Assembly (NCBI GenBank): GCA_030157745.1
Contig: JAOAUE010000032.1
Coordinates: 1-39,013 of the forward strand
Reading direction: 5' to 3'
Origin: Minisyncoccota bacterium
GTDB taxonomy: Bacteria > Patescibacteriota > Minisyncoccia > Phycocordibacterales > UBA9973
DNA: 39,013 bases
In this document: piece after piece, positions 10,816 through 33,713 of the stretch
Layout of the letters: each line of letters opens with the position of its first letter
Position numbering within the stretch: the first letter of the stretch is position 1
The notes under the pieces: generated by a model
What the model was told of the DNA's origin: nothing
Database searches by the model: none
What the model saw: only the letters and a program-made list of their open reading frames with translations
Made by a program: the position numbers and the translations under genes

Positions 10816-10820
10816 GGAAA

Positions 10821-12591: not shown

Positions 12592-12613
12592 TTTAGTTTC
12601 TAGTGGCTAGGTT

Positions 12614-13867: not shown

Positions 13868-13943
13868 ACCTACATAATCGCATATTTTGAGCAATAAAAA
13901 AAGCCTGCTTGCTTTTGATTTTTTAAGAGTATAATATAAAAGT

Positions 13944-14204: not shown

Positions 14205-14218
14205 TTATTAAACATTAA

Positions 14219-14260
14219 AAAAGCCGGTACTTTTTAGTATCGGCTTTATCTTTTGTTTTT
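14219..14260. terminator. bidirectional terminator
   Basis: AAGCCGGTAC-ttttta-GTATCGGCTT stem of about 10 bp with one G-T pair. Flanked by an A-run upstream and T-runs downstream, between convergent genes. Confidence 0.6.
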
Positions 14261-14872: not shown

Positions 14873-15089
14873 ATTCAGTTTTTAAAATTTTGTACAATTT
14901 GATTATCTTATATATTATAGCATAGATAATATATAAAGTCAAATATACAACCTTGCCAAAAGGCCTTGGAAATGTTAAATTAAATCGTCCATTCATGGGC
15001 GAAATTATTCAGTTAAGCAAGCCCTTCGGCAAGCTCAGGGTAAAGTCCCTAAGGTTACCAAAGAAGGGCTCGTACAGATTAGTAAAAAT

Positions 15090-15764
15090 ATGAAAAAAGA
15101 ACTATCATTAACGCCTCTTATGGAGGCAGGTGTCCACTTTGGATACTCACGTACTCGTCGTCACCCTACCGTTACTCCATACCTATATGGAACAAAAGGT
15201 GGTGTAGATATTATCGATCTAGAAAAGACAACTCCTCTTATGGAGAAGGCTTGTGCATTTTTGTCAGAGCTTGGCCAAGCAGGTAAGACTGTGCTTTTTG
15301 TAGGTGTTAAACCAGAAGCTAGAAATATAGTTATGGAAGTAGCACAATCTCTCAAAATGCCATACGTAACAGAGCGATGGATCGGTGGGATACTCACAAA
15401 CTTCCCTGAAATCAAAAGAAGAATTGCTCGCCTAGAAGAGCTCAAAGAAGAGCGCTCAAGTGGTGGATTTGATAAATACACTAAAAAGGAACAAATCCTT
15501 CTAAACAGAGAGATGGATCGTCTCAACAAATACTTTAGTGGCCTGACAGGTCTTACAAAAATGCCTGACGCTGTAGTAATAGTAGATACAAAAAAGGAAC
15601 ACATCGCCATAGCAGAAGCTCGAAAGATTGGAGTGCCAGTTATAGCTATCGGAAATACAGACTGTTCTATCCGCGCTATCTCTTACCCTATCATCGCTAA
15701 CGACAGTAGTGCTTCTAGTATTTCTACAGTTCTTGGTATACTTAAGGACGCATTTAGTAAGTAA
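15090..15764 (+). CDS. rpsB: 30S ribosomal protein S2
   Basis: LMEAGVHFGYSRTRRHP and the VPVIAIGNTDC region are typical of S2. Followed by tsf, the conserved gene order. Confidence 0.95.
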   Translation: MKKELSLTPLMEAGVHFGYSRTRRHPTVTPYLYGTKGGVDIIDLEKTTPLMEKACAFLSELGQAGKTVLFVGVKPEARNIVMEVAQSLKMPYVTERWIGGILTNFPEIKRRIARLEELKEERSSGGFDKYTKKEQILLNREMDRLNKYFSGLTGLTKMPDAVVIVDTKKEHIAIAEARKIGVPVIAIGNTDCSIRAISYPIIANDSSASSISTVLGILKDAFSK

Positions 15765-15939
15765 AAAGTTTTTAAAGTTATAAAGTTCGTAAAGTTTAAA
15801 AGGTAAATAAAACGGACGAAGATATTCTTTGAAGAATGCCCTGCGTAGGCTGTCTGAGCCGAGCAGAGCAATCCGTCAGCAGACGGATATGCGTGCATTT
15901 TGAAAAGAGATATCAAGGAAGTTTTTATAAAAAATAAAA

Positions 15940-16725
15940 ATGACAACAACAATTACAACAGAACAGGTTAAAGAGTTAAGAGACAAAACAAGTGTATCAG
16001 TTATGCAATGTCGCAAGGCCCTTGAAGAAGCAGGTGGCGACATGGAAAAGGCTTTGATTATCCTCCGCAAAAAAGGTAGTGAGATGGCTGAAAAAAAGTC
16101 AGATAGAACTGCTGTTGATGGCCGAGTATTTATAAAGTCTGAGGGAGGCAAAGCAGTAGTAGTAACTCTAAACTGTGAGACTGATTTCGTAGCTCAAAAC
16201 CAAGGCTTTATAGACTGTGGAGAAGCTATCTTGTCTATTGCGTGGACCGAAGGGGCTGAAAAAGCTAAAGAACAAGCACCAAGCGCTATAAACGAAGCTG
16301 TATTAAAGACTGGAGAAAACATCCAACTCGGTACAATAGATGAGTATTCTGGAGAGACTATTGGTACATACATTCACTTTAACGGCAAAAACGCTGCTTT
16401 GGTTGTACTGAAGGGAGGCAATGTAGATGTAGCCAAAGACATAGCTATGCATATAAGCGCAATGAAGCCTACATACCTACAAGCTACAGATATCAAAGAG
16501 AGCGACAGAGAAGCTGTTATAGAAGTTTTGAAAAAAGAAGTAGACGAAAGCGGTAAACCAGAAGACATAAAAGCAAAAATGATGGAAGGAAAAATATCTG
16601 GATATTTCAAAGAACAAACCCTACTCGATCAACCATTTTTCAAAAATCCAGAAATGACTATCGGCAAAGTAGCTGATAGTGCCGGTGCAGAAGTAGTCTC
16701 ATTTAAACTCTACACACTAAACTAA
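15940..16725 (+). CDS. tsf: translation elongation factor Ts
   Basis: N-terminal UBA-like VKELRDKTSVSVMQCRKALEEAGGDMEKA, CETDFVAQN motif, downstream of rpsB. Confidence 0.9.
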   Translation: MTTTITTEQVKELRDKTSVSVMQCRKALEEAGGDMEKALIILRKKGSEMAEKKSDRTAVDGRVFIKSEGGKAVVVTLNCETDFVAQNQGFIDCGEAILSIAWTEGAEKAKEQAPSAINEAVLKTGENIQLGTIDEYSGETIGTYIHFNGKNAALVVLKGGNVDVAKDIAMHISAMKPTYLQATDIKESDREAVIEVLKKEVDESGKPEDIKAKMMEGKISGYFKEQTLLDQPFFKNPEMTIGKVADSAGAEVVSFKLYTLN

Positions 16726-16730
16726 AAAAC

Positions 16731-17114
16731 ATGATTGGCAAAGTTTTTGCGATTATAATCTCTATCTTGGCATTGTGGTTCCTTGTTATGTTTCTTATCT
16801 TCAGAGAAGCACACAAAAAAGAAACAAATGTTGAAATAAAACAAATATCAAACAAGTATCTAAGAGAGACTAGAAAGTTTTGGTTTTTGTTTTTAAGAAT
16901 AATAAACACACTTAGAGATCTTGCTACAAAAATAATAGCCAAAGCGTTCTTTTATATCTTTCCAAAAGCCAAAAGTGTTTTTGAAAAAAAGGACGAACTA
17001 GCAGGTCTAGAGCATGGGCCATCCTCTTACTTCCTAATGAGTATTTCTGAGGATAAAACAAAAGTACCATCTAGTGAAAAGAAAAAAGCTAGACGAAAAA
17101 CAAAAAATGTGTAA
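16731..17114 (+). CDS. hypothetical membrane protein (127 aa) with a lysine-rich C-terminus
   Basis: N-terminal TM helix (FAIIISILALWFLVMFLIF). Starts 5 nt after tsf. Confidence 0.45.
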   Translation: MIGKVFAIIISILALWFLVMFLIFREAHKKETNVEIKQISNKYLRETRKFWFLFLRIINTLRDLATKIIAKAFFYIFPKAKSVFEKKDELAGLEHGPSSYFLMSISEDKTKVPSSEKKKARRKTKNV

Positions 17115-17224
17115 AATATAGTTCAGTTGGCCCCATTTTTTGGAGCCGATTACGCCACCTTATCTGTTTTGGTGGATATAATGATTAGCAATAAAACAGA
17201 CACTGGTTAGCACATCCAGTACAT

Positions 17225-17300
17225 GCCGCTTTAGCTCAGTTGGTAGAGCAACGCTTTTGTAAAGCGAAGGTCGTCAGTTCAAGTCTGACAAGCGGCTCCA
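17225..17300 (+). tRNA. tRNA-Thr (anticodon TGT) with encoded CCA
   Basis: Manual cloverleaf fold: acceptor GCCGCTT/AAGCGGC; D arm GCTC-AGTTGGT-AGAGC; anticodon arm ACGCT-TTTGTAA-AGCGA with anticodon TGT; variable loop AGGTC; T arm GTCAG-TTCAAGT-CTGAC; discriminator T plus CCA. Confidence 0.9.
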
Positions 17301-18828
17301 TCACTCGCATTTCGTCGGGAATACTAAAATTAGCACGGGCGGCGCGAAGCGCCGACCACGGATTTTCGCCTGATTTTGAAACAGCATTCTCGGAATTCGG
17401 CGCGCTCGCACGCACTGTTTTTTCGCCAAGGAGGAGGTTCGAGCCAAAGACTTTTTTGGCAGCAACCTTTTTATCTAAAAAGTTGCTATCCAATGCGATT
17501 TTTTCCATATCCTGAGCCTCTTTTATCCATTTTGCCATCGGTTCGAGCCACAATTTTTGTTTGCTCTCCGAACGAGAGATTTCTTCCTCCAGCGACTTTT
17601 TCTCGGATAATAATTTTGCTTTTTCCGCTCGATAAATTTCCTTTTCTATATCTTGATCTAAATATCCGTCTAAAAGTCGCTGGAGCTTCACTGTGATGCC
17701 TTGTATCTTTTTCTCGTTTTCGAAAACAAAAATATGAACAGATTGGGCGGATTCCGTTTTGTCTTTTTCAAGTCTTTCATTCAGATAATCCGCCCAATCT
17801 TGTGGCATAGAAACTTTTTGAAGAAGTGATGAAATTTGCGCGTCCATTTTTTCTGCTCGAATACAAGGTTCAGGGCATTTTTGAGTTTTTGATTTCTTGG
17901 TACAGCGATAATATGTATAGAAATGTTGAGTACCATTTTTCTGCGTTTTTACCTTGTATTCGCCAGTTATTTGCATTCCGCACGACGCGCACGAAAGCAG
18001 TCCGCAATATGCTTGTGGATTATTCTTATGCTTACCAGTCGGACGACTTTTCCGCTCCATCACTTCTTGCACCTGGTCAAAAAGTTTCTTTGACACGATT
18101 GGCTCGTGCTTGCCTTCGTGTACTTCGAGATTAAACCTGAAATGTCCGTAATAAAATGGATTTGAGAGGATAAAGGTCGTACGCGAGATGTGGATTCTCT
18201 TTCCTTGTTTGGTTAGCAAGCGGTTTGCTTCAAAATACTCGCCGATACTTTGAAGTGTAGAATCTCCTTTTGCGTAAAGTTCAAATGCTTGGCGAATAAT
18301 CGGAGCAGTCTTTTTGTCAGCAACAACAGTTTTCGTCCTCGAATCGTTTATATACCCCACCGGAGCCAGACTTGGATATTCGCCACGCCTGACTTTCTGC
18401 CGCAAACCGCGCTTCGTATTTTCGGAAAGAGAATCCACATAGTATTTGCTTTGTCCAAATGCCATATTGAGCATAAACTTGCCTTGTGAACTGCTGTCAC
18501 ACCAAAATGTCGGGAATTTTAAACTCACAAGTTTTTCTGTGTCGAGGAGATAGATAATACGCCCACCATCAACAGAATTACGAGCGAGACGGTCAGGATG
18601 CCACGCGAGAATATTTCCGCCGAGTTTTTCAATTTCATTTAGCATCTCGTTAAATATCGGACGACCAGGAATCTTGGCAGATTGTTTTTCCACATACTCG
18701 GCGGAGATTTCAATATTCTCTCGCGTGGCATAGTCTCGCAATTCTTGAAGTTGTGCTTCAATCGAAAGAACCTGCTTATCCTCGACATCAGTTGACTTGC
18801 GAGCATACAAAAAGAATTTTTCACTCAT
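17236..18828 (-). CDS. large serine recombinase (resolvase/invertase N-terminal domain, recombinase domain, zinc ribbon, coiled coil)
   Basis: YARKSTDVEDKQVLSIEAQ catalytic-Ser region; WHPDRLARN; Cys-rich CASCGMQ...YYRCTKK...CPEPC; long coiled coil. The last ~42 codons lie in inverted repeat IR1, and the final 20 codons read antisense through the tRNA, so the exact functional C-terminus is uncertain. Confidence 0.85.
   Translation of the reverse strand: MSEKFFLYARKSTDVEDKQVLSIEAQLQELRDYATRENIEISAEYVEKQSAKIPGRPIFNEMLNEIEKLGGNILAWHPDRLARNSVDGGRIIYLLDTEKLVSLKFPTFWCDSSSQGKFMLNMAFGQSKYYVDSLSENTKRGLRQKVRRGEYPSLAPVGYINDSRTKTVVADKKTAPIIRQAFELYAKGDSTLQSIGEYFEANRLLTKQGKRIHISRTTFILSNPFYYGHFRFNLEVHEGKHEPIVSKKLFDQVQEVMERKSRPTGKHKNNPQAYCGLLSCASCGMQITGEYKVKTQKNGTQHFYTYYRCTKKSKTQKCPEPCIRAEKMDAQISSLLQKVSMPQDWADYLNERLEKDKTESAQSVHIFVFENEKKIQGITVKLQRLLDGYLDQDIEKEIYRAEKAKLLSEKKSLEEEISRSESKQKLWLEPMAKWIKEAQDMEKIALDSNFLDKKVAAKKVFGSNLLLGEKTVRASAPNSENAVSKSGENPWSALRAARANFSIPDEMRVMEPLVRLELTTFALQKRCSTN
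17296..17421 (+). repeat. inverted repeat IR1, left copy (126 bp)
   Basis: Exact reverse complement of 18907-19032, checked base by base. Imperfect extension to 17442 / 18886. Confidence 0.9.
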
Positions 18829-18906
18829 TTATTGATTCTAACAAAAATTCTTTTTGTATGTAAATAGCAAAAATTGCATTTGATTTCGAACCTCCTCCTC
18901 CAAAAC

Positions 18907-19032
18907 AAAACAGTGCGTGCGAGCGCGCCGAATTCCGAGAATGCTGTTTCAAAATCAGGCGAAAATCCGTGGTCGGCGCTTCGCGCCGCCCGTGCTAATT
19001 TTAGTATTCCCGACGAAATGCGAGTGATGGAG
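18907..19032 (-). repeat. inverted repeat IR1, right copy (126 bp); a duplicated recombinase 3' end
   Basis: Exact reverse complement of 17296-17421. Read on the plus strand it encodes ...SNLLLQNKTVRASAPNSENAVSKSGENPWSALRAARANFSIPDEMRVME, the recombinase C-terminal peptide. Confidence 0.9.
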
Positions 19033-19215
19033 TGGTTGTACGATTCGGCTCGAACCTATTTCATCAAAAATTCATAAATGTATTAAATGCGGACTCGGTT
19101 TTGCGAAAGCTCTTTTTTGGGGACACGGATTTCGCAAAACCTCGGCTGATTCTTTTTTGGCATTCGCCTCTGGTTCTGGGTTCTCCCGCAGGAGGGGTTT
19201 GGGGAGGAATGCGGG
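19030..19215 (+). repeat. inverted repeat IR2, left copy (186 bp)
   Basis: Exact reverse complement of 26046-26231, checked base by base. Overlaps IR1-right by the 3-nt GAG core. Ends 2 nt before the RT1 stop codon. Confidence 0.9.
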
Positions 19216-19217
19216 GG

Positions 19218-20306
19218 TTATTTTGGGTCTTTGAGAAAATGTTTAAACTTATTCCGTAAGCGATAACTATTGGCATGAGAAAAATGTCCGAGATATGAGC
19301 TTATGCCAGCTTGTAATTTCTCTCGCGTTTTCTCGTGGCAAGGAAGCCTCAATTTTTCTGCCCTCTGTTTACACCTTCCAACAGTTGCCCGACGAACGAG
19401 GACATGAGTGGGCTTGATAATATACCCGACGAAGTCAATACCGTGGCGCACTCGTTGCAAGATAATTTTCCGCGGATGGATGTTGAGCTTGCGTTCTCTC
19501 TTCAGCCACACTTCTATCTGTACCACCGCACTCTTTAATTTTTCTTTATCCGCATCAAGAAATACGAAATCGTCCACATACCTCGCGTAGCGAGGAAATC
19601 CGAGCGTCTGGCTGATATATTTATCAAGCCCGTCGAGATAGCAGTTAGCGAAGAATTGCGAGGTCAAGTTCCCTATCGGCAAGCCCGTACCGCCGGAGTA
19701 AAAGAGTGATTTATGTTTCGGGATAAGTGCTTTGAGTGCAGTATCTCCCCTGTAAATATAATCAAGTGTCGGGTCACAAAAGATAACCTGCTCGCAAATC
19801 CAAAGCATATCCCCTTTCCACCACTCGGGTTTTTCTTGCTGATTGATAAGCCCTGCGATGACATCAAAAAGAATTGGTCGGTCAATCGAACGGAAGAAGC
19901 TCTCGACATCAAGCTTCAGATACCAATCATTCGGGCGCTCTCGGGCATAGGCACGCACTTGCTTGAATCCTGAGTGCGTCCCCTTGCCTTCCCTATTGGC
20001 ATACGAAGTTGGCACGAACCAACTTTCGCACAAAGGAGCAAGCTCGTTGTAAATAATATGGTGTATAACCCGATCACGAAAGTCGGCAGCAAAAATCTCT
20101 CTCGGCTTCGGGTCAGTCACGACAAAAGAAATATGTCGACTGATGCAGTATGTCCGTTCAGTGAGTTCTTTCCGCAGACTGATAAGCTCGCGCTCCCGCA
20201 AGAGTTCAAACCGAAGTCGATTGACTGTTTTCTTTTTACGCTTGATACAGCTCTTGTACGCCAGCCAGAGATTCTCTAAGGTAAAAATAGTTTCTACTGT
20301 ATTCAT
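19218..20306 (-). CDS. DGR reverse transcriptase 1
   Basis: RT motifs, including the DGR-typical LPIGNLTSQFFANCYL and the YxDD box YARYVDDFVFL. Lies immediately downstream of TR1. Start taken at ATG 20306 (MNTVETIFTLENLWLAYK); alternative start 20327. The track ORF extends to 20606 only by reading through TR1. Confidence 0.9.
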   Translation of the reverse strand: MNTVETIFTLENLWLAYKSCIKRKKKTVNRLRFELLRERELISLRKELTERTYCISRHISFVVTDPKPREIFAADFRDRVIHHIIYNELAPLCESWFVPTSYANREGKGTHSGFKQVRAYARERPNDWYLKLDVESFFRSIDRPILFDVIAGLINQQEKPEWWKGDMLWICEQVIFCDPTLDYIYRGDTALKALIPKHKSLFYSGGTGLPIGNLTSQFFANCYLDGLDKYISQTLGFPRYARYVDDFVFLDADKEKLKSAVVQIEVWLKRERKLNIHPRKIILQRVRHGIDFVGYIIKPTHVLVRRATVGRCKQRAEKLRLPCHEKTREKLQAGISSYLGHFSHANSYRLRNKFKHFLKDPK

Positions 20307-20354
20307 TTGGTCTGTTATTGTGCGCATAAAGCAGAGGGTTCGATAGAGGAGTTC

Positions 20355-20491
20355 TCGAACACACCGGACATAGTTGCCATTGGTCTTATCATTCGCATCA
20401 GAGTTGCCATTGTTGAAGTTCACGTTCCAGGCGTTGTTCTCATTGCCCGGATTCTGATAGGTAGAGGACGACCAGTAGTTGTCCGACTGTG
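20355..20491 (-). repeat. DGR-1 template repeat (TR1, 137 bp)
   Basis: Aligns without gaps to 21137-21273 with 25 mismatches. 24 of them are at TR adenines (sense strand). Asn (AAY) codon-rich in frame. Confidence 0.9.
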
Positions 20492-20605
20492 AAATATGAT
20501 ATGTGCGTGACTGTCCGTGTCGGACGTACAGCGCAAATTCGTTTCGTTTATCCTCAGAACTATTAAAAATAATTCTGAGAGCACACACTGAACTCCTCGT
20601 CCTCA

Positions 20606-21007
20606 CTAAAACAATGTTTTTATAGTTGTCTTATTCTGGGTGGGCGCAGTTTTTTTCGGACTGCACGAAGTTCTCCAACCCTCTGCTTGACGCGCGCAAT
20701 CCACCACTTGCTCGACCAGATACAAGTATTGCCGCGGCGAAGCGAACTGCTTCAGCTCCTCGGCTACGCGGAGCATAATCGTAATCTCCTCAATCTTCCA
20801 AACCAACTCACTCAAAACAGCACTCCTGTGTTCAACCGGAGTGCTATTGGCTTTTACGATCAGCCGTACTGCTTCCATCGCGCTTGCAAGGAGCGATGCG
20901 CCGAGCGTGTACTTGTATTGCTTGTCTATTTTCGGCACACGAATGTAGAACTCTTTCAGGAGCCTGAACGTTGCGCTATAGATAGGGAGGTGTTGGTATT
21001 GAGCCAT
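20606..21007 (-). CDS. avd: DGR accessory variability determinant (Avd-like four-helix-bundle protein)
   Basis: 133 aa helical, basic protein in the canonical position between the target gene and TR/RT. Sequence resembles the four-helix-bundle (23S rRNA IVS protein) family. Confidence 0.75.
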   Translation of the reverse strand: MAQYQHLPIYSATFRLLKEFYIRVPKIDKQYKYTLGASLLASAMEAVRLIVKANSTPVEHRSAVLSELVWKIEEITIMLRVAEELKQFASPRQYLYLVEQVVDCARQAEGWRTSCSPKKTAPTQNKTTIKTLF

Positions 21008-21025
21008 AGAAAAATATCACCCCCC

Positions 21026-21047
21026 CCCCTCGCGAAAACGCGAGGGG
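21026..21047 (-). promoter_or_regulatory. GC-rich hairpin (9-bp stem, 4-nt loop) downstream of VR1, embedded in a G10 tract
   Basis: CCCCTCGCG-AAAA-CGCGAGGGG on the plus strand. About 86 nt 3' of the target stop codon and 19 nt 5' of the avd ATG. Confidence 0.5.
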
Positions 21048-21133
21048 AAGAATAACCAAAGGAATAAAAAGAATCGAGAAAAGAACCCAAAGAAAAACCG
21101 CAAAAATTATCAAATAAACAAATCATCAAAGAA

Positions 21134-21976
21134 TTATCGAACACACCGGACATAGCCGCCCTCGGCCTTACCAACCGCATCAGAGTAGCCATCGCCGAAG
21201 CTCACGAGCCAGGCGCCGCCCTCACCGCCCGGACCCTGATAGGTAGAGGACGACCAGTAGCTGCCCGACTGTGTGTTTGGGAAGAATGTCGTATCGATGG
21301 CAGGGTTGACTGTGGCAAGGCTCACAATGGAAAGAAGTTCGATTCTATTTGGCAAGCGCCAGTCACTGTGTCCCGCTGTGGTATCGGCTTCACAGGTCGA
21401 GAGCGCAGTCGTCCAGTCAAGTCCAGTAGCAGAATCAGCCGAACAGTCAGTATCTGATTGTCCTTCGGAACATTTTTTCCACATAAGTCCTGTCGCGTTA
21501 TCCGAAATCGTGCTGTCAGTATTATCTACAAATCGCGCGCCGCTTGTGGGTAAACCTTTTTCGTAGTCGCCATCTTGTCCGGTACCAGTACACGATATTG
21601 GAGTACCACTTGCATCCCAACAATCAGTCTGACCAGTTTTTGGTAGTCCAGCTTGTCCAGCCGATGCAGTACCTGCAACGCCCATATATGTCGTCCCTGT
21701 GAGTATTTTAGTCGCATCAAGCGTCGGAATGCTTTCATAAATCTGCTTGAGGGTGTGAAATGTCGCAGACACAGAGCCAGGCGTAGTAAACGAAGCCGAA
21801 CCTTCGACTTGGCTTGTCGTGTTGTCGATGAGTCTGTTGTAAATGCCATCGAGTGTGTACATCGTGCTTGCCGGAACTCCAGGCGGAGTAAGCGAACCTG
21901 CAAAACTTGTGCGGACAAATGCACCGATTATAAATGCGACGAGAACAAAGGAACCGATTTTTAGAAACTTTTTCAT
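21134..21976 (-). CDS. DGR-1 variable target protein, secreted DUF1566 (Lcl C-terminal / C-type-lectin-fold) protein
   Basis: Signal peptide. GLMWKK...HSDWRLPNRIELLSIV...YWSSSTY...YVRCVR is the DUF1566 signature. The C-terminal 45 codons are VR1. Confidence 0.9.
   Translation of the reverse strand: MKKFLKIGSFVLVAFIIGAFVRTSFAGSLTPPGVPASTMYTLDGIYNRLIDNTTSQVEGSASFTTPGSVSATFHTLKQIYESIPTLDATKILTGTTYMGVAGTASAGQAGLPKTGQTDCWDASGTPISCTGTGQDGDYEKGLPTSGARFVDNTDSTISDNATGLMWKKCSEGQSDTDCSADSATGLDWTTALSTCEADTTAGHSDWRLPNRIELLSIVSLATVNPAIDTTFFPNTQSGSYWSSSTYQGPGGEGGAWLVSFGDGYSDAVGKAEGGYVRCVR
21137..21273 (-). repeat. DGR-1 variable repeat (VR1)
   Basis: 137-bp match to TR1 with adenine-specific substitutions, at the extreme 3' end of the target ORF. 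Confidence 0.9.
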
Positions 21977-21977
21977 A

Positions 21978-22856
21978 TTATTTACTATTTAATTTATTTC
22001 TTGTAATAGGACCGACGATGCCATCTGCTGTGAGAGTATTATTTTTTTGAAACGTTACCACCGCTTGCTTGCTCTTTGGACCAAAAATGCCGTCAGTCAC
22101 TAAAGGTGGCGACAATGTCTGAACTTTTTTGTTGAGACATATTTGCAAGTCTTTGACGTTGGTGTTATTCATCCGAGGAATTGTCAGCTTTAAAGTTTGA
22201 GTGAAGTTGAGTGTACACACTGTAGTAGGTAAAGTTGTCGGAAGTGTTGTAATCACAATAGTTCCCTCGCTTGCAGTCAAATACGATCCTTTGCAATCTG
22301 GATCAGCTAAATCAATCTTCCCATCGTGGTCATCGTCAATGCCATTGTTGCACTGTGTGATTATTCGCCCTCCCCCACTACTGTGACTAGTACTTGGTGC
22401 GGGCGTGACTGGTGGTCGCCACGCAGTCGTCACTTTGTAGTCCACTGTCCCGCAACTTGAAGTGTTGGCGCAGTTAAAAGAGATCCAACCGATATTTGGG
22501 CTATATGCGTAGCCAGAAAAAATTCCAGTGCTTGTGTTGATGGTCGCCTGAGAGAAATCCACATAGCCAGTATTCTCGCTCCACGCGTAACCTGAGAGTG
22601 TGCCGGAGGAATTTGAAACTTTGTAATCAGTGGTACCGCATGAACTAGTGTTATCACAATTGAGCGACAACCAGCCGATGTTCGGACTGTACGCATAGCC
22701 GGAAAGTACGCTACTTGAAACAGTCACTTGAGAAAAATCTATCCAGCCAGTATTCTCGCTCCAGGCATAACCGGAGGTGCTATCTGCAAACGCTTTTGTC
22801 GCAGAGAAAAACATTATTGATAATATGAATAAACTAAAAACGGATTTTAATCTCAT
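21978..22856 (-). CDS. secreted repeat protein with a C-terminal peptidoglycan-binding domain
   Basis: Signal peptide. Two ~70-aa repeats carrying GYAWSENTGW(I/V)DFSQ and GYAYSPNIGW(L/I)S(L/F)NC. C-terminal PG_binding_1-like DGIFGPKSKQAVVTFQKNNTLTADGIVGPITRNKL. Its stop is 1 nt from the DGR-1 target start. Confidence 0.8.
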   Translation of the reverse strand: MRLKSVFSLFILSIMFFSATKAFADSTSGYAWSENTGWIDFSQVTVSSSVLSGYAYSPNIGWLSLNCDNTSSCGTTDYKVSNSSGTLSGYAWSENTGYVDFSQATINTSTGIFSGYAYSPNIGWISFNCANTSSCGTVDYKVTTAWRPPVTPAPSTSHSSGGGRIITQCNNGIDDDHDGKIDLADPDCKGSYLTASEGTIVITTLPTTLPTTVCTLNFTQTLKLTIPRMNNTNVKDLQICLNKKVQTLSPPLVTDGIFGPKSKQAVVTFQKNNTLTADGIVGPITRNKLNSK

Positions 22857-22877
22857 TCTATTATTATACCCCCCCCC
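22857..22877 (-). promoter_or_regulatory. G9 tract abutting a TATAAT box 6 nt upstream of the ATG (candidate leaderless promoter of the DGR-1 operon)
   Basis: The minus strand reads GGGGGGGGG-TATAAT-AATAGA-ATG. Confidence 0.4.
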
Positions 22878-22904
22878 GAGCGTTTTGGCAAGGGTGTTGC
22901 CCCC

Positions 22905-23930
22905 CTATTCCTTGTTAAAATCGGCCGTTTGAGAACGCTTTACATACTCAACAACTTGCCCCGCGAGCCTCTCTGCGTTTCCGTGGCTCAATAGCCCGAG
23001 ATACGACTGAACTGTTTCTTCCTTGCCCTCTTTCTCTTTGATACGCTTCCACATCCTGCGTTTCGTTGCCGTTCTTACTATGCGGTGATCGGGAAAATGT
23101 ACCCAGCCGAGGAAATCAACACCGGAGGCAAGCGTCTTTATAAAAACTTTATTGGGATGAAGTGATAGCTTGAGTCGTTCTTTTAGGAAAGAACCTACTT
23201 GGGGTAGTATCGTTTCCAACCATTTCTTGTCTTCAGACAGAAAAACAAAATCGTCAGCATAGCGTATATAGTATTGTGCTTTCAACTTGTGCTTCACGAA
23301 TTGGTCAAACTCATTCATATATATGTTTACGAATATCTGCGAGGTAAGATTGCCAAGTGGAAGCCCAACCTCTTTTCGTGTCGAATGAAAACTCCCGATG
23401 ATACCTGATAACAAAGAGAGTATGTCTTCGTCAGAAATATATTTCTTGATAATCCCGATAAGTACACTATGGTCAATGGATGCAAAAAACTTTCGTATAT
23501 CGCATTTCAAAATCCATACTGTTCTTGTGTTATTTTTTGATACTGTGTCAGAAAACATTTTAAATCGTTGTAACGCTTTATGTGTTCCCTTTCGCTCTCG
23601 GCAAGAATAGGAGTCAGCTATAAATGTCTTATCGAAGAATGGATAGAGTTCCCGATAGAGTGCATGGTGAAGCAGTCTATCCCGCACCCTTGCTTTATGT
23701 ATACTTCGTGGCTTTGGGTCAGATATATTGAATGCGTAATAGTCGGAGTGCTTATATGTTTTTTGTGAAAGTTCATTGTGAAGCTCTATGATATTCGCCA
23801 TTAAATTTCGCTCAAAATCCAAGACATCTTTTCGGAGTTTTTTACCTTTCAAAAAATCTTTCCACGCAAGGAGGAGATTTTCAAGAGAAATGATATATTG
23901 ATATGTATGAATAAACTGAATCCGAGCCAT
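22905..23930 (-). CDS. DGR reverse transcriptase 2
   Basis: LPLGNLTSQIFVNIYM and YIRYADDFVFL motifs; N-terminal ...SLENLLLAWKDFLKGKK. Paired with TR2/VR2. ATG at 23930 preferred; the track start at 23960 translates the G-tract. Confidence 0.9.
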   Translation of the reverse strand: MARIQFIHTYQYIISLENLLLAWKDFLKGKKLRKDVLDFERNLMANIIELHNELSQKTYKHSDYYAFNISDPKPRSIHKARVRDRLLHHALYRELYPFFDKTFIADSYSCRERKGTHKALQRFKMFSDTVSKNNTRTVWILKCDIRKFFASIDHSVLIGIIKKYISDEDILSLLSGIIGSFHSTRKEVGLPLGNLTSQIFVNIYMNEFDQFVKHKLKAQYYIRYADDFVFLSEDKKWLETILPQVGSFLKERLKLSLHPNKVFIKTLASGVDFLGWVHFPDHRIVRTATKRRMWKRIKEKEGKEETVQSYLGLLSHGNAERLAGQVVEYVKRSQTADFNKE

Positions 23931-23992
23931 AATAACTATAAAGATACCCCCCCCCGACAACGCTTTTACCAGTACTTCAGAAACTCAAAACT

Positions 23993-24313
23993 GTGTATAT
24001 CTTATGGTATCAGTATTATCAAAACTTGCCTAAAGCCCATCGCTACTCGCTTGGAGTACGGATTGATGCCTTGTTCGTAGAAATAATGGAAGCTATCTCA
24101 CTTGCAGGATTTCTTCCCCGTAGCGAGAAACAAACCTATGTACGGCTCTCTATACGGAAAGTAGATACTCTTAAAATCTTACTGATGATTGTATGGGAAA
24201 CGAAATCTATAGATAATAGGAAATACATCGCCCTCTCTGTACCACTTGAAGAAATCGGGAAAATGCTCGGCGGTTGGAACGGACAGCTTACAAAACAAAA
24301 CTCCCCCAACTAA
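23993..24313 (+). CDS. avd: Avd-like four-helix-bundle protein, divergent from RT2
   Basis: 106 aa helical protein (…AHRYSLGVRIDALFVEIMEAI…KVDTLKILLMIVWETKSIDNRKYIALSVPLEEIGKMLGGW). GTG start. Lies between RT2 and TR2 but on the opposite strand. Confidence 0.65.
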   Translation: MYILWYQYYQNLPKAHRYSLGVRIDALFVEIMEAISLAGFLPRSEKQTYVRLSIRKVDTLKILLMIVWETKSIDNRKYIALSVPLEEIGKMLGGWNGQLTKQNSPN

Positions 24314-24337
24314 ATAGTTGAGGGAGAAAGAAGAGAG

Positions 24338-24440
24338 TTGCGAACACCAGCGAACCACCAATTGTCATTCCAGTCGTTATCATTACGATTGACATTCACG
24401 TTACGCTCGTCGTCATTCCAGTGGTTGAACGTGGCAATTT
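24338..24440 (-). repeat. DGR-2 template repeat (TR2, ~103 bp)
   Basis: Gap-free alignment to 24803-24905 with 20 mismatches, all at TR adenines (sense strand). In-frame translation is Asn-rich (NVNVNRNDNDWNDNWWFAGVR). Confidence 0.9.
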
Positions 24441-24676
24441 GTACAAAGTATCATCTGTGCCACTGCCCTTTGAATACTCTCGGGGCTGTATCGTATTTGC
24501 GATCATAATCGCTCGATACTCTGTACCAAGTATCTTCATTTTTTGTTTGAAGTTTCTACATACACCACTCTATCCTAAGCCGTAGCCCTAGATATTCTCA
24601 ATGTATGGATACTGGGATCGGTAGCGGACAATCGTGATCGTCCACATATTCACCTACTGCCATGATTATTTTAGCA

Positions 24677-24709
24677 TAAAAAATACCCCTGCGTTTTATG
24701 CGAGGGGTA
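24677..24709 (-). terminator. rho-independent terminator after the DGR-2 target gene
   Basis: The minus strand reads ACCCCTCGCATAAAACGCAGGGGT followed by ATTTTTTAT. Confidence 0.55.
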
Positions 24710-24798
24710 GGAAGTTTGTAAAACCTCCAAAACTTTTTGCGAACGAAGGGCAAAGTTCAAAGTGTCAAAATAGGACAGAGTGAACAAAATCCTAAGTA

Positions 24799-25410
24799 CT
24801 ACTTGCGAACACCAGCGAACCACCAACCGTCATCCCAGCCGTCATCACCACGACTGACAAACACGCTACGCCCGCCGCCATTCCAGCGGTCGAACGCGGC
24901 AAAGCACCATTTACCATTTGCATCCTTCCAGTGTGTACCATTAGGATATTTGTCAGCAAAGGCAGGATCAGCTTCGTTTACAGCAGCCTGTGAATACGGG
25001 TCGGCGGGTTTTAATCCACGGAGGTCATATTCTTTTTCCAGGTCGTTGTCATTAACAAAGCGACCAAGGTTAAAGAAGAAAACTTCTGTTTCTTCGCCTT
25101 CTCCTTTTGGCATTTTGGCAACAACACCGCTATCAGTGTATTGCTTCCTGCCTGTGGCATCCAACATTTCTTTTGGTGATCGGTTGCGGTTTACTTTTAC
25201 CTTGCGGATAATCAGATTACTGATCGCATCCACACGTTTAAGGATTGAAGCATACATCTCATCCAATAATGTTTCATCTCCAAGCACTTGCTGGAAAAGA
25301 TTACTTGGAAGCTCATTTTTGTGCTTCAGTAATCGTGCAGTCAAGTTTTGGTTTAATTTACCGATTTGACCTTCGGTAACAGGTTCTGTTGATGGGGTCA
25401 TAGTGTCCAT
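24799..25410 (-). CDS. DGR-2 variable target protein (no signal peptide; C-terminal CLec/FGE-like variable region)
   Basis: 203 aa. The C-terminus ...WCFAAFDRWNGGGRSVFVSRGDDGWDDGWWFAGVRK is VR2. No N-terminal hydrophobic segment. Confidence 0.85.
   Translation of the reverse strand: MDTMTPSTEPVTEGQIGKLNQNLTARLLKHKNELPSNLFQQVLGDETLLDEMYASILKRVDAISNLIIRKVKVNRNRSPKEMLDATGRKQYTDSGVVAKMPKGEGEETEVFFFNLGRFVNDNDLEKEYDLRGLKPADPYSQAAVNEADPAFADKYPNGTHWKDANGKWCFAAFDRWNGGGRSVFVSRGDDGWDDGWWFAGVRK
24803..24905 (-). repeat. DGR-2 variable repeat (VR2)
   Basis: Matches TR2 with adenine-specific substitutions, at the 3' end of the ORF. Confidence 0.9.
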
Positions 25411-25599
25411 GGCGTCATCGTTTTAATTGTTTGTGCCATCGGACTATACCTTCGTGGTATAGCCATAGCCAAAAAGTGCTTAGAGATAAGAACCTTTTGG
25501 CTATGGCTATGTTGCAAGTAGATGTAAAAGAGCTGTTCCGAGCTGTATAATAGCATAATAAACCATAAAAGTCAATCTTTGAGTTTAGAAATGGAGCGA

Positions 25600-26045
25600 T
25601 GACCTATTCACGGGGAGTGTCTTCCGTGCGCGCGAATGGGTGGGATAGTCCGCCTGTATTCAGGCGGACTGGGTCAAGCGCAGTTGCATCTGAGCCTCGG
25701 GCATTTCCGCTATGAGCGTCCAATGGCTAAAGGATGAGCGCCGTGGGTAATCGAAGTGGAATATGTAAATAGCGAAGCAAAAGATACACGCTAATATGAA
25801 AAGCGTGGAGTGGGTGTGGCGAGGGCGCACGACGAGGAACGAGGAGTATATCGCCCGACCCAGGGAGAGGAGACTTCCTCTCCCTAAGAAGCGCGGGTGA
25901 TAACCCGCACATAGGCACCTAGGCGCGAGTAGCCATAGCGGAAATGCCCGAGGCGGATGCCGAGGGTGCATCCCCTTTAGACTTGGACAATACATAGCAG
26001 AGAAATGACTGAGACAATGATTTAGTCCTGTTTCTTTCTTAGAAG
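25600..26045 (+). ncRNA. candidate large structured RNA or DNA element (unclassified)
   Basis: ORF-poor and GC-rich. A perfect 21-bp long-range helix pairs 25693-25713 with 25933-25953. Nested hairpins: AGTCCGCC/GGCGGACT at 25648-25671, AGGGAGAGGA/TCCTCTCCCT at 25862-25885, GCGGGT/ACCCGC. A TATAAT box lies at 25546-25551. Strand and ends are uncertain. Confidence 0.4.
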
Positions 26046-26231
26046 CCCGCATTCCTCCCCAAACCCCTCCTGCGGGAGAACCCAGAACCAGAGGCGAATG
26101 CCAAAAAAGAATCAGCCGAGGTTTTGCGAAATCCGTGTCCCCAAAAAAGAGCTTTCGCAAAACCGAGTCCGCATTTAATACATTTATGAATTTTTGATGA
26201 AATAGGTTCGAGCCGAATCGTACAACCACTC
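26046..26231 (-). repeat. inverted repeat IR2, right copy (186 bp), right end of the island
   Basis: Exact reverse complement of 19030-19215. Confidence 0.9.
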
Positions 26232-26244
26232 AAGGATATACAAA

Positions 26245-26310
26245 CAGTTGGTAGAGTTCTGTCAACGCATAACTAAAGCGAAAGGTCTTTCAAGTCTGAC
26301 AAGGGACTCC
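26245..26310 (+). pseudogene. degenerate partial tRNA-Thr copy (3' three-quarters)
   Basis: Shares CAGTTGGTAGAG, AACGC, AAGCGAA, GGTC and TTCAAGTCTGACAAG with the tRNA at 17225. It has an insertion, a broken T stem and no 5' acceptor strand. Confidence 0.65.
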
Positions 26311-26317
26311 GGCATAA

Positions 26318-26344
26318 GAAAACCCATCACAAGGATGGGTTTTC
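26318..26344. terminator. bidirectional terminator
   Basis: AAAACCCATC-acaa-GGATGGGTTTT hairpin with flanking A/T runs, directly after the stop of the 26345 gene. Confidence 0.6.
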
Positions 26345-27451
26345 TTATTCAACACTATGAATCTTTTTTTCTATATCTTCTTCTAAAGCAGTGACATGCT
26401 CCATTTCTTCTTTGAGAGACTGGTGTACTCTCTGCAATTCTTTTAGCTCATCTTCAACTTCACTAACGGTTTCTTTTTTTCTAGTTCTACTAAAAAGCAT
26501 TTTTATTTGAGTTTTCCTCAGTGTTACAACAGTGACAACTGTAGCTATGATAAGAACAATAAAACCAGCAAATATAAGCCACAAATGCAGGTTGTTATCA
26601 GCAGGAGATTCTTTTAGATTATTTGCGTTATCTATAGTACCTATATCTATCCATTTATCTATGATAACTTGCTTTTCAGCGTCAGAGAGAGCCTTGAGCC
26701 CTTGGTCTAGTATAAGCAAAAGTTCAGGTTTTGACTTTGGAACCGCAAATGAGTGTTTGTATTCAAAACCAGTACGACCGACTGCTTTTATATAAGAGAG
26801 CACATCCTTGCTTGTGTAATATGAAAGAGAAGCTAGATCCATAACAGCTGCGTCGACTTCTCCGAGGAGGAGTTTTTGTAGAGCGACTTCGTCATCAGAG
26901 ACAGGTACTATTTCAACCTTTTCATAGTTGGTCTTTATATAAGAAACAACTGGATAGCCCTCTCCTACTGCTACCTTTTTATTTTTAAAAGATGACAAAG
27001 ATGTTACGGTGCTTTTTTCTTTGAAGTCCTTTCTAACAACAACAACTGCTGGCATAGTAAGGTAAGAGTCGGTAAAATTGAAATTTTTCTCTAGTTCCTC
27101 TGTTGGGCTTAGAGAAAGTATGATGCTGTCGAAATCTAACTCCTTAGATTCTTTTAAAATCTCACCCAAAGAAGCCTCTTCTTCATAAGAGAGCTTTGCG
27201 CCGATTTTTGATGCAATTGCCTCTAAATATTCAGCTGACAAGCCCTTGATCTTCCTCGAAGTACCAGAGCCCAAAAAAACATAAGGGGGGTTACTCTTTT
27301 CCGGCTTTATAGAAATAGTACGATTGTATTTATTTAGCCATAAATTTTGAGTAGGAGTCAATACTTGAGCAGAAACTATAGATGCACTGAAAAAGCTTAG
27401 GCAAAAAATAGCCAGAAACACTGCTGAGATATATTTGCTGAGCTTGGGCAT
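26345..27451 (-). CDS. membrane-anchored solute-binding protein (SBP_bac_3-like domain, C-terminal TM helix, coiled coil)
   Basis: Signal peptide. Periplasmic-binding fold features (NPPYVFL, GLSAEYLEAIASKIG, DAAVMDLAS). TM helix LWLIFAGFIVLIIATVVTVVTL, then a charged coiled coil. Confidence 0.75.
   Translation of the reverse strand: MPKLSKYISAVFLAIFCLSFFSASIVSAQVLTPTQNLWLNKYNRTISIKPEKSNPPYVFLGSGTSRKIKGLSAEYLEAIASKIGAKLSYEEEASLGEILKESKELDFDSIILSLSPTEELEKNFNFTDSYLTMPAVVVVRKDFKEKSTVTSLSSFKNKKVAVGEGYPVVSYIKTNYEKVEIVPVSDDEVALQKLLLGEVDAAVMDLASLSYYTSKDVLSYIKAVGRTGFEYKHSFAVPKSKPELLLILDQGLKALSDAEKQVIIDKWIDIGTIDNANNLKESPADNNLHLWLIFAGFIVLIIATVVTVVTLRKTQIKMLFSRTRKKETVSEVEDELKELQRVHQSLKEEMEHVTALEEDIEKKIHSVE
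26792..26902. repeat. 111-bp block identical to 27945-28055 (direct repeat inside the paralogous SBP genes)
   Basis: Base-by-base identical. Encodes VSDDEVALQKLLLGEVDAAVMDLASLSYYTSKDVLSY in both genes. Confidence 0.9.
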
Positions 27452-27497
27452 ATTGTTATAAGGTATTGTAGCGTGTTTATGGGCCTAAAATCAACAC

Positions 27498-28577
27498 TTA
27501 GTCTATACGCTCGATCTTCTCCTCTATAGACCTTTTTAACGAGTCTATTTCTTCTAAATTTTGCTCTAGGGTGTTGCTGGCAGACTCTAGTCGAGTAAGC
27601 TCAGTTTTGAGTTCAGCAGCCTCCTTAGACCTCTTTAGGCTTGCTATGTGATACCTATGATGCTTTCTCGAGTGAGCAATTATCAAAGTCAATAAAACTA
27701 TAATGATGACTATCCCAATGATGCTTATAGAGATCCATAGCGGACTTTGTAAGACCTTAGCGACTTTCTCACCTTTTGAATCTGTGTTTTCCTTAAATGT
27801 TATCCAACGGTCAGAAATAATACTTTTTTCTGTGGGTGTTATCTCTTTCAGCCCAGCATTTAATATTGTGATCATCTCAGGCATTGTTTTTGGGACAGCA
27901 AAAGATAGTTTGTACTCAAAGCCAGTTTGTCCACCAATAGCAACATAAGAGAGCACATCCTTGCTTGTGTAATATGAAAGAGAAGCTAGATCCATAACAG
28001 CTGCGTCGACTTCTCCGAGGAGGAGTTTTTGTAGAGCGACTTCGTCATCAGAGACGGGATCTAAAATTATTTTTGGGTAGTTGTCTTTGATATAATCGAA
28101 TGCTTCATAACCATTTGTTACAGCCAACTGTTTGGCCTCAAAATCAGCCAAGGTCAGCTCTTTTGGATGTCTAAAATCTTTTCTTACTACTATAACAGCG
28201 GGAAGAGAGATGAAAGCTTCTGAAAAATACATGTAGTCTAACCTTTCGTTTGATTCCGCAATCGCAAGTATAATGCCTTCTTTTCCTGATTTTATATCAG
28301 AGAGTATGGTGTTTCTAGATTTAGCTTCCAAAAATGTAGCTTGTGCGCCTACTTTTTTTGCGACGAGATCTAGATAGTCAACAGCAAGACCTTTGGGTCT
28401 GGCACTAGTAGAAGAAGAAAGGAAAGAAAAAGGCGGATAGTTACGCTCTGGCCTAGCTAACAAAGTGTTGTTGTGTTTTTTGAGCCAAGAGGACTGATCA
28501 GGAGTAAGAACATTGGCGCTCACCAAAGAGAATATACTTAAAAAACAAAAAGTTGTTAGTAAAAAATAACGGAGCAT
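27498..28577 (-). CDS. membrane-anchored solute-binding protein paralog (SBP_bac_3-like, TM helix, coiled coil)
   Basis: Same architecture as 26345..27451. Start set at ATG 28577 (MLRYFLLTTFCFLSIFSLVSA, a signal peptide). The track start at 28811 overlaps the upstream gene. Confidence 0.75.
   Translation of the reverse strand: MLRYFLLTTFCFLSIFSLVSANVLTPDQSSWLKKHNNTLLARPERNYPPFSFLSSSTSARPKGLAVDYLDLVAKKVGAQATFLEAKSRNTILSDIKSGKEGIILAIAESNERLDYMYFSEAFISLPAVIVVRKDFRHPKELTLADFEAKQLAVTNGYEAFDYIKDNYPKIILDPVSDDEVALQKLLLGEVDAAVMDLASLSYYTSKDVLSYVAIGGQTGFEYKLSFAVPKTMPEMITILNAGLKEITPTEKSIISDRWITFKENTDSKGEKVAKVLQSPLWISISIIGIVIIIVLLTLIIAHSRKHHRYHIASLKRSKEAAELKTELTRLESASNTLEQNLEEIDSLKRSIEEKIERID
27945..28055. 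repeat. 111-bp block identical to 26792-26902
   Basis: See the partner copy at 26792-26902. Confidence 0.9.
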
Positions 28578-28615
28578 ATATTTATATAAATATTGTATCA
28601 CAACAAAAGCTTGAG

Positions 28616-30584: not shown

Positions 30585-30587
30585 ACT

Positions 30588-32494: not shown

Positions 32495-32522
32495 AAACTC
32501 TCTTTTTTAAATTAATGAATTT

Positions 32523-33599: not shown

Positions 33600-33713
33600 A
33601 ATTTAAATTTAATTTTATTTATAATAATTTTAAGCACTTACCTAGTACTTACTTATAGTATATCAATATCCAAAGCCTTAATCAATAAAAAAGCCTGAGT
33701 TATCCACAGTTTT

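Follow-up and report, generated by a model that had tools for sequence, protein, structure and literature searches.

Large serine recombinases (LSRs) of phages, such as the A118/LI, phiC31, Bxb1 and TP901-1 integrases, combine Resolvase, Recombinase and zinc-ribbon domains with a coiled-coil region and act on short, non-identical attP and attB sites that share a few crossover bases. In serine integrases the zinc-ribbon motif lies about half a turn (~4-5 bp) further out in attP than in attB. Staphylococcal cassette chromosomes (SCCmec) are small islands with highly variable cargo that encode no transfer functions themselves; the LSRs CcrA/B/C insert them into a conserved housekeeping gene, at its 3' end. 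Tycheposons of Prochlorococcus are tRNA-targeting cargo mini-islands that provide flexible genes to streamlined genomes lacking conjugation; of 937 tycheposon and related elements in that preprint, 910 have a tyrosine recombinase, and a minority use a large serine recombinase (bioRxiv 10.1101/2020.12.28.424599). Further, the available text on Legionella pneumophila Corby reports an integrase-dependent island, acquired by horizontal transfer, that bears a diversity-generating retroelement (DGR) whose target is of the DUF1566/Lcl_C type, and DGRs also on plasmids and phages (PMC5758913). Here we analyzed an 8.9-kb island in a Minisyncoccota bacterium (Patescibacteriota; candidate phyla radiation, CPR). 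The window, i.e., the whole stretch that was analyzed, comprises the 39,013 nt of contig JAOAUE010000032.1 (assembly GCA_030157745.1), and its positions 17299-26228 are very probably a recently acquired, site-specifically integrated mobile island that belongs to a family of LSR-driven mini-islands.

The island shares the above features of the phage integrases, including the shift of the recognition motif between attP and attB half-sites. Unlike those integrases, its recombinase is non-phage, its attB sites are tRNA 3' ends with a mimic of the T-loop in attP, its attP lies inside the 3' end of the LSR gene, an intact inverted attP with 100-400-nt arms is retained, and no recombination directionality factor (RDF) was found. 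In contrast to SCCmec, the island has a single recombinase, tRNA targets and a double inverted-repeat layout. Tycheposons share hallmark replication genes and occur in another phylum, and the available part of the preprint notes no internal inverted attP (bioRxiv 10.1101/2020.12.28.424599). The Legionella island is larger in the available description, whereas two unrelated DGRs reside here on an 8.9-kb LSR element in CPR (PMC5758913). Mechanistically, the present element is a serine-integrase island, and its lifestyle resembles that of SCC elements and tycheposons. In the literature we found no description of a CPR-wide family of this kind, of a retained inverted attP with long arms, of a T-loop mimic or of an 8.9-kb LSR element with two DGRs, although a prior description is possible. 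The original prediction, made from the window alone, had considered the element type undescribed; this agrees with the literature as regards the family, but DGRs on integrase-mobilized islands were already known from Legionella, as the available text states (PMC5758913).

The island is inserted at the 3' end of a tRNA-Thr gene (Table 1; tRNAs were called with ARAGORN and Rfam), and this end forms the B half of attB and attL. The crossover core, CTC, comprises the last acceptor base, the discriminator and the first C of CCA; the CA needed to complete CCA at attL comes from the element. It had been proposed that attL, attR and an internal copy of the joined ends share this core, and the sequence of each site is as had been described. 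attP and attB have only the short core in common, and attL and attR are hybrids of the two. Further, the empty site predicted from them, GTCTGACAAGCGGCTCAAGGATATACAAAC, was found verbatim in three near-identical strains (L086, L087 and L088; L-numbers are labels of loci compared with the window), the contigs of which were picked because they carry the window's exact EF-Ts protein. Their flanks align to window positions 5939-17298 at 99.4% and to 26229-35651 at 98.9%, and the two alignments overlap by exactly CTC. Three JGI contigs (L090-L092), which are 99.8-100% identical to the window and thus closer than L086-L088, are also empty and contain one extra 78-nt pseudo-tRNA unit. The tandem 78-nt unit also explains L003, which had at first appeared to be an odd empty site. 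Insert-free strains therefore exist at the syntenic site between tsf, tRNA-Thr and the substrate-binding protein (SBP) gene.

The composition of the island also differs from that of its flanks, as the original prediction implied. The GC content is 44.7% in the island and 39.3% and 38.6% in the flanks. The tetranucleotide distance to the host profile is 0.36-0.40 in windows centered on the island and ~0.30 toward its right end, about twice the level of the neighboring flanks, where it is 0.16-0.23 as far as ~33 kb. Beyond this, the right end of the window (~33-39 kb, under a giant open reading frame (ORF)) deviates in its tetranucleotide profile too.

The same island occupies the syntenic tsf / tRNA-Thr / SBP site in L001, L002, L096 and L179. 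The flanks are ~76-81% identical to those of the window in L001 and L002 (two NCBI assemblies), 66-69% in L096 (NCBI) and 67-74% in L179 (JGI). Thus, at least two, and probably three, other host backgrounds with flanks 66-81% identical to the window carry the island. The differences of these copies from the window are confined to five places, i.e., the variable repeats (VRs) of the two DGRs, a single hairpin loop and two indels. With 22-23 differing sites in VR1 and 13-18 in VR2, each pairwise comparison with the window gives 35-40 substitutions in the VRs. The other differences are a 1-nt homopolymer indel (22868), a 13-bp deletion in L001 and the hairpin loop at 25898-25922. Apart from this loop, there were 0 substitutions outside the VRs over up to ~8.7 kb compared (7.7 kb in L179). 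On the right, identity ends between 26231 and 26232, and divergence begins directly past the core; on the left, just three host tRNA positions differ (17273, 17281 and 17289), and all differences of the host tRNA variants of L096 and L179 lie left of 17290. The limits that had been assigned to the island thus coincide with the break of identity at the core.

Because the copies are identical outside the VRs, indels and loop while the flanks are only 66-81% identical, the island has spread very recently between hosts. Further, identical DNA bounded at a 3-nt core in divergent hosts excludes homologous exchange and vertical descent and argues for site-specific integration. The integrative, mobile nature that had been proposed for the element therefore fits its distribution. 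An exact scan of a metagenome contig collection with a 27-mer of the attP core yielded 0 matches; the collection is incomplete, and since L179 (Ga0451708_0003081, JGI) contains this 27-mer, the null result reflects the collection rather than absence of the sequence. The island represents a sequence-defined vehicle for horizontal gene flow in ultra-small CPR bacteria, which lack conjugation systems and are poor in prophages.

The cargo consists, as had been reported, of two complete DGRs, a PG_binding_1 protein and a structured segment without ORFs. Each DGR has a template repeat (TR) with a single VR in the window, the VR being located at the 3' end of the target gene, and an adjacent reverse transcriptase (RT). 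The TR/VR mismatches fall at TR adenines in 24 of 26 cases in DGR1 and in 17 of 17 in DGR2. The RVT_1 matches of the two RTs have E-values of 5.5e-17 and 1.2e-23, and NCBIfam gave only sub-threshold group II or retron matches. The putative Avd proteins scored 39.5 and 35.9 bits against bAvd (cut-off 40) and 38.5 against DivGenRetAVD (cut-off 80). RT1 and RT2 are 34% identical, and the two DGRs therefore represent distinct lineages. Compared with L001, the VR differences lie at TR-adenine positions in 22 of 23 cases (VR1) and 13 of 13 (VR2). Because otherwise identical copies differ nearly only at TR-adenine sites of the VRs, both DGRs have been active, with ongoing mutagenic homing, since the island spread. 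Each would copy its TR through the error-prone RT and rewrite adenine-templated positions in the 3' end of its own target. Substitutions in the VRs, with none elsewhere except in the hairpin loop, provide a natural measure of DGR activity.

The recombinase matched PF00239 (resolvase; E = 2.9e-22), PF07508 (E = 1.1e-16) and PF13408 (zinc ribbon; E = 1.3e-7) in Pfam searches, which covered 10 island ORFs and were supplemented with NCBIfam. It thus contains a resolvase catalytic domain, with the nucleophilic serine S12 in RKSTDVED invariant across 22 homologues, and the C-terminal recombinase and zinc-ribbon domains. The closest solved structure is the C-terminal domain of the A118 integrase (4kis/6dnw; E = 6e-13). 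The best NCBIfam matches were CcrB and CcrC; because CcrB scored 132 bits against a cut-off of 900, the LSR is not a Ccr, being only distantly Ccr/XisF-like, and the island is not an SCC element.

The LSR ORF crosses the attL core, and in the chromosomal form the protein ends in 20 codons of tRNA antisense, with the stop codon (after CSTN) in the antisense of the tRNA D-loop. Across attP, the LSR would instead end in a conserved 13-14-codon tail (P-tail; LYDSARTYFIKNS and stop). Variation among P-tail codons is mostly at synonymous third positions, and the stop is at the same codon. Among the 120 closest homologues of the LSR, ~15% terminate with the P-tail LYDSARTYFIKNS rather than with a tRNA-antisense tail. 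Because the ORF crosses the crossover core, integration changes the C-terminus of the LSR. In phage Mx8, attP also lies within the integrase coding sequence (intP) and integration alters the C-terminus of the enzyme; the Mx8 enzyme differs in being a tyrosine integrase, and its attP is not duplicated. Pairing of the upstream arm with the 3' end of the LSR mRNA as a 5' untranslated region (UTR) was considered and rejected, since the best promoter is inside the unique spacer, downstream of the arm. In many other members, a conserved leader of ~110 nt that forms a long hairpin (e.g., GGCTTTAATGGCCGTCTCGGA...CCGAGGCGGTCATTTAAG) is located upstream of the LSR ATG, between promoter and start (L004, L022, L023, L046, L051, L054, L057, L065, L070, L075, L076, L077, L082, L083 and L095). 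The window element, with a spacer of just 57 nt, lacks this leader, which may serve as a regulatory 5' UTR.

The internal copy of the joined ends, the reverse complement of GTACAACCA-CTC-CATCACTCGC at 19021-19041, had been taken as a picture of the circular junction. The sequence is present as described; however, it is not merely illustrative, as it is far longer than 21 nt and represents the joint of two inverted-repeat pairs, a structural hallmark of the whole family. IR-A (17296-17442 vs 18886-19032; 147 nt) is 96% identical, being exact for 126 nt and followed by 6 diverged and then 13 matching bases. IR-B (19030-19215 vs 26046-26231; 186 nt) is 100% identical. The order in the window is thus tRNA, P' arm, LSR gene, inverted P' arm, inverted P arm, cargo, P arm and host, and the internal attP with its long arms is intact, inverted and conserved in the family, the double inverted-repeat layout recurring in ~130 of the 160 related loci. 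In the P' arm, a conserved GC hairpin (17337-17357) precedes a T tract; compensatory changes were found in 6 of the 8 hairpin pairs among 18 elements. At attL this hairpin points toward the tRNA, and at the internal copy toward the cargo.

Table 1. Features of the island and its borders in the window (positions refer to the 39,013-nt stretch; blank cells, no entry).
Feature	Positions	Strand	Remarks
tRNA-Thr(TGT)	17225-17300	+	ARAGORN; Rfam 69.5 bits
Large serine recombinase (LSR), 530 aa	17236-18828	-	Resolvase, Recombinase, Zn_ribbon_recom
attL crossover core CTC	17296-17298		tRNA positions 72-74; reads ...GACAAGCGG-CTC-CATCACTCGC
IR-A left arm (P' arm)	17296-17442		encodes the last ~49 LSR codons on the minus strand
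Promoter-like site for LSR, TTTACA-18-TG-TAGAAT	18835-18864	-	in 57-nt unique spacer; consensus match only
IR-A right arm (inverted P' arm)	18886-19032		in-frame copy of the LSR tail (SNLLLQNKTVRASAP...)
Internal attP core GAG	19030-19032		intact, inverted; minus strand reads P-CTC-P'
IR-B left arm (inverted P arm)	19030-19215		in the free form would supply the 14-codon P-tail (WLYDSARTYFIKNS, stop) and a hairpin/T-run after the LSR
DGR1 reverse transcriptase	19218-20327	-	ORF open to 20606; likely ATG 20327 or 20306, downstream of TR1
DGR1 TR1	20354-20491	-	
DGR1 Avd	20606-21007	-	just below curated cut-offs
DGR1 target, Lcl_C / DUF1566 C-type-lectin-like	21134-21976	-	
VR1	21136-21273		extreme 3' end of DGR1 target, ends at stop codon
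PG_binding_1 protein	21978-22856	-	between the two DGRs; G9 tract before ATG
DGR2 reverse transcriptase	22905-23960	-	probable ATG ~23929
DGR2 Avd-like protein	23993-24313	+	strand opposite to the rest of DGR2
DGR2 TR2	24338-24437	-	
DGR2 target, 203 aa, no Pfam match	24799-25410	-	promoter-like site 25547-25575
VR2	24803-24902		3' end of DGR2 target, ends at stop codon
Structured element, ~260 nt	25694-25954	+	closed by 21-bp stem; directly behind the P arm
IR-B right arm (P arm)	26046-26231		T-loop mimic GGTTCGAGCC at 26205-26214
attR crossover core CTC	26229-26231		reads ...GTACAACCA-CTC-AAGGATATAC, span 26220-26241
Pseudo-tRNA-Thr, 5'-truncated, host side	26245-26310	+	outside the island; occurs at empty sites, duplicated in L090-L092

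Close homologues of the LSR number in the thousands (63-81% identity for the top 120). Where named, they are mostly from metagenome-assembled genomes (MAGs) of Patescibacteria, and many of them are on contigs of 1.7-2.5 kb. We surveyed 160 loci with one script (80 from GTDB representative genomes and 80 from metagenomes). IR-A was present in 64 of the 70 loci with adequate flanks and in 128 loci overall; among these 128, the arms were 100% identical in 56 and at least 95% identical in 103. IR-B was complete in 33 loci (123-487 nt, around 1.2-7 kb of cargo). Complete elements were tabulated for n = 26, and further complete ones were found in the second, metagenomic set. Most of the 26 show an overlap of 3-8 nt between the arm pairs (CTC, CAC, CACCA, CTCCA and similar), which corresponds to the discriminator/CCA end of the tRNA; the overlap is odd in L026, L036, L051 and L064 (24, 44 or a gap). 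In nearly all loci, the LSR gene and a tRNA gene of the opposite strand meet at their 3' ends. The targets include at least 15 tRNA species (Thr, Val, Lys, Gly, Arg, Cys, Glu, Ile, Leu, Tyr, Asn, Gln, His, Ala, Asp and Met), and LSR modules ~90% identical in DNA were found at different tRNAs. The family is nearly absent from IMG/VR, with one distant match.

The family carries genes for alanine racemase, XRE regulators, methyltransferases, PadR, dehydrogenases, glycosyltransferases and pilin-like proteins. No cargo gene is universal, and a small XRE-type gene alone recurs (7 elements). DGRs were found in ~4 of ~150 loci examined, namely the window lineage, L023, L077 and probably L123, in which the RT is upstream of the LSR and the distal arm was not seen. 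The element had been described as a DGR carrier; two DGRs do reside on this LSR island, but the element type is a general cargo shuttle. As to whether homologous recombinases flank DGRs elsewhere, a check proposed with the original prediction, DGRs proved to be occasional cargo (~4 lineages). Double-inverted-repeat LSR/tRNA mini-islands thus form a large family of general cargo shuttles in Patescibacteria, and we consider the family-wide internal attP, rather than the DGR cargo, the most interesting part. Because an intact attP is kept inside the element, attP can be read from a single integrated copy, and the thousands of serine integrases with a readable attP are a resource for integrase discovery and for studying the evolution of target choice.

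At least two LSR elements at different tRNAs were often observed in single small CPR genomes, sometimes in convergent tRNA clusters (L082, L127 and L066; MAG pairs L032/L039, L006/L056 and L015/L079). In L095 (9640-11600), an LSR has a P arm (...TTTAATAAACA followed by CACC) upstream and an arm of a different type (...CGTAAAGACA) downstream, with no tRNA. The standard layout does not account for these mixed arms, which could result from recombination between elements or from an assembly walk that crossed from one element to another.

The consensus of the P arm in the family is AAAATAGGTTCGAGC-N4-GT(T/C)GTAAAGACA, followed by the core. In the window, TTCGA of the P arm begins 22 nt from the core, and the TTCRA motif of the tRNA T-loop (TTCAAGT at 17278-84) begins 18 nt from the core. 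This offset of +4 nt was found in 23 of the 26 scorable elements. The position of GGTTCGA in the P arm fits the attP/attB geometry of serine integrases, by analogy with which we infer that the zinc-ribbon domain reads the T-loop motif GGTTCRA. Recognition of the T-loop would explain how close relatives switch easily among many tRNAs.

In the mechanism that we propose, the LSR recombines attP of the element with attB, the 3' end of the tRNA gene, by a crossover inside CTC. Integration keeps the tRNA intact and swaps the last 14 LSR codons (the P-tail) for 20 tRNA-antisense codons. The inverted intact attP divides the island into two compartments bounded by inverted repeats, one containing the LSR gene with its own promoter and the other the cargo. 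Excision and the excised circle are predicted from this arrangement. Tentatively, the internal attP may be the second attP of that circle, within a 330-bp inverted repeat, and the chromosomal arms may insulate the LSR and cargo compartments from outside transcription, the hairpin/T-tract modules of the arms facing into each compartment as insulators. Somewhat more doubtful is the idea that the internal attP is a working part of a mobilization or control mechanism new for serine integrases, acting through a tail-swapping flip without an RDF or through rebuilding of attP or circularization from single-stranded DNA (ssDNA). If this were true, the family would represent a new class of tRNA-targeting serine-integrase cargo shuttles that dominates the mobilome of Patescibacteria. 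Current models of how serine integrases acquire directionality do not account for the conserved internal attP, the role of which can be tested directly.

Several observations weigh against the mobile island as reconstructed here and against the roles proposed for its parts. The assignment of the T-loop motif to the zinc ribbon has spacing as its single line of evidence. The hairpin and T tract of the window P' arm are not a canonical terminator and were not called in a terminator scan. No RDF was identified in the element, and neither an RDF nor a universal cargo gene was found across the family. The circular junction would equal the internal attP over 330 nt, and no contig can distinguish a circle. 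Mismatches between the arms are uniform (4-6%) and are not depleted at the attP core, which fits periodic homogenization of whole arms better than selection on a site. Further, the strains closest to the window in their flanks (L090-L092) carry the extra 78-nt unit, and the exact pre-insertion haplotype is not among them.

As an alternative to the insulated compartments, the island could be an inversion switch, in which the LSR or RecA flips the LSR and/or cargo segment, such that the LSR exchanges its tRNA-antisense tail for the P-tail, its orientation to the strongly transcribed tRNA changes and the enzyme is turned on for excision without an RDF. Such a switch would account for the homologues that carry the P-tail, for the in-frame, family-typical coding variant of the LSR tail in the upstream arm and for the mainly synonymous variation of the P-tail with its constant stop codon. 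Further, in 6-7 contigs the tRNA (+) is directly upstream of the LSR (+) (L017, L021, L048, L060, L079, L112 and P0032, the last at the same rpsB-tsf-tRNA locus). However, every flipped-looking contig stops within the repeat, as expected of ambiguous de Bruijn walks where the repeat is at least as long as k, and all complete elements, the 26 tabulated and those of the second set, have one orientation. The conservation of the P-tail needs no flipping because the free form must translate the P-tail anyway. A small XRE gene is beside the proximal arm in 7 of 7 elements, and the cargo therefore does not flip freely. Further, attL x attP recombination is, to our knowledge, not known for serine integrases. 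On balance, we regard the switch as unlikely. Isomers or a circle were sought among LSR tails, in the P0096 and P0032 contigs, in 80 metagenome loci and among near-identical pairs of opposite orientation, and nothing decisive was found; the arms are at least as long as assembler k-mers, and the flipped-looking contigs all end in the repeat. No near-identical (at least 99%) counterpart of these contigs in standard orientation was found, the best being ~90%. A flip of the cargo considered for L077, in which the DGR block is reversed, was rejected; the structured element adjoins the distal arm in both elements, which indicates an internal rearrangement.

It is still less probable that the layout is an adaptation to an ssDNA stage. 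In this case, the internal inverted attP would anneal to both ends of a single strand that entered, for example, through natural transformation, a process known from Patescibacteria, and would form a duplex attP or a splint for circularization; the arms would also provide strand-specific hairpin signals whichever strand enters. The arms (114-405 nt) are much longer than an LSR site requires and abound in short GC hairpins; many of these have GAA-type triloops (e.g., GCGAAGC), which are very stable as DNA mini-hairpins. In addition, the elements spread between divergent hosts without transfer genes, and the even decay of the arms together with the many 100%-identical arms fits periodic homogenization of whole arms. 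Serine recombinases, however, need duplex DNA and cut four strands, and recombination of a folded single strand with attB would be expected to leave a hairpin-capped broken chromosome. The hairpin loop bases are third positions of an invariant Leu codon of the LSR tail, and constraint on the protein may account for them.

The predicted circle has the layout of the yeast 2-micron plasmid, in which FLP/FRT are within 599-bp inverted repeats, i.e., two unique regions, inverted repeats with central sites and a recombinase in one region. The 2-micron plasmid is eukaryotic, replicates autonomously and uses a tyrosine recombinase, whereas no replication function is evident here. It is very improbable that the island is a plasmid of this type, amplified by recombinase-mediated flipping, or a phage satellite resembling phage-inducible chromosomal islands (PICI-like). 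The smallest members contain 1.2-1.6 kb of ordinary metabolic or regulatory cargo and no recognizable replication or packaging gene (ORFs were read and clustered, without Pfam), the single distant match in IMG/VR argues against a satellite, and we know of no attP x attP recombination by serine integrases. In the window element, no phage or conjugation genes were found among the 10 ORFs scanned against Pfam, in agreement with the original prediction. Capsid, terminase and packaging domains were absent from these ORFs, and the island is accordingly not classed as a phage or satellite. Relaxase and type IV secretion domains were likewise absent from the scanned ORFs (oriT was not searched), and the island is not classed as an integrative and conjugative or mobilizable element.

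Nor is there much probability in a passive island, i.e., an ancestral segment that was deleted in the empty strains or was carried by homologous recombination of the flanks after DNA uptake. The tsf / tRNA-Thr / SBP site is indeed syntenic in all carriers, but the flanks differ by 19-34% while the island is identical, and the switch to divergent sequence coincides exactly with the 3-nt core at the right end and lies within the tRNA at the left end; homologous exchange would give variable end points in the flanks, and relatives occupy the same position of at least 15 different tRNAs. An assembly artefact, in which reads from a circle were threaded into the integrated contig and gave rise to the internal attP and inverted repeats, is scarcely credible: short-read assemblies of the family do give palindromic or ambiguous contigs (L107, L133, L141 and L157) and IR-B is 100% identical in the window, but assemblers do not create the imperfect inner end of IR-A, four independent assemblies (L001, L002, L096 and L179) have the same structure, and ~130 related loci have arms of 77-100% identity with element-specific sequences.

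The structured element behind the P arm is conserved in L077 (3018-3330) and L095 (8978-9276), with a closing stem of 21-23 bp, and is always directly behind the P arm. Its fold has a z of -6.4, and 8 pairs show compensatory changes in a 4-sequence alignment; no Rfam match was found at the gathering or a permissive threshold. The element is probably non-coding. One-sided changes in the stems give G-U pairs on the window plus strand and A-C mismatches on the minus strand. Because G-U pairs are kept only on the plus strand, the element, if it is an RNA, is probably made from that strand. It is not specific to DGRs, because L095 has no RT nearby.

A G9 tract followed by TAT(A/C)(A/T)T(A/T)ATAG, in minus-strand sense, precedes the ATG of both the PG-binding gene (22858-22879) and RT2 (23936-23957). 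In L001 and L002 the tract is G10 at 22868, and the PG-binding gene is called there as 278 aa, compared with 292 aa. The slippage-prone G tract may modulate expression. A near-perfect 24-bp hairpin (25459-25510; 92% complementary, 4-nt loop) is located in the predicted 5' UTR of the DGR2 target, flanked by the promoter-like site (25547-25575) and the start of that gene.

On the host side of attR, the pseudo-tRNA region (26232-26310) probably represents either the decayed remains of a second tRNA or the trace of earlier insertions, because the relatives L004 and L077 have two tandem tRNA-Thr genes. The second 78-nt unit in L090-L092 ends in a perfect ...TGACAAGCGGCTC half-site and lacks a T-loop. 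Further to the right, adjacent SBP_bac_3 paralogues beside the island share 111-114 nt of 100% identity (26792-26905 vs 27945-28058), which suggests gene conversion between these neighboring genes.

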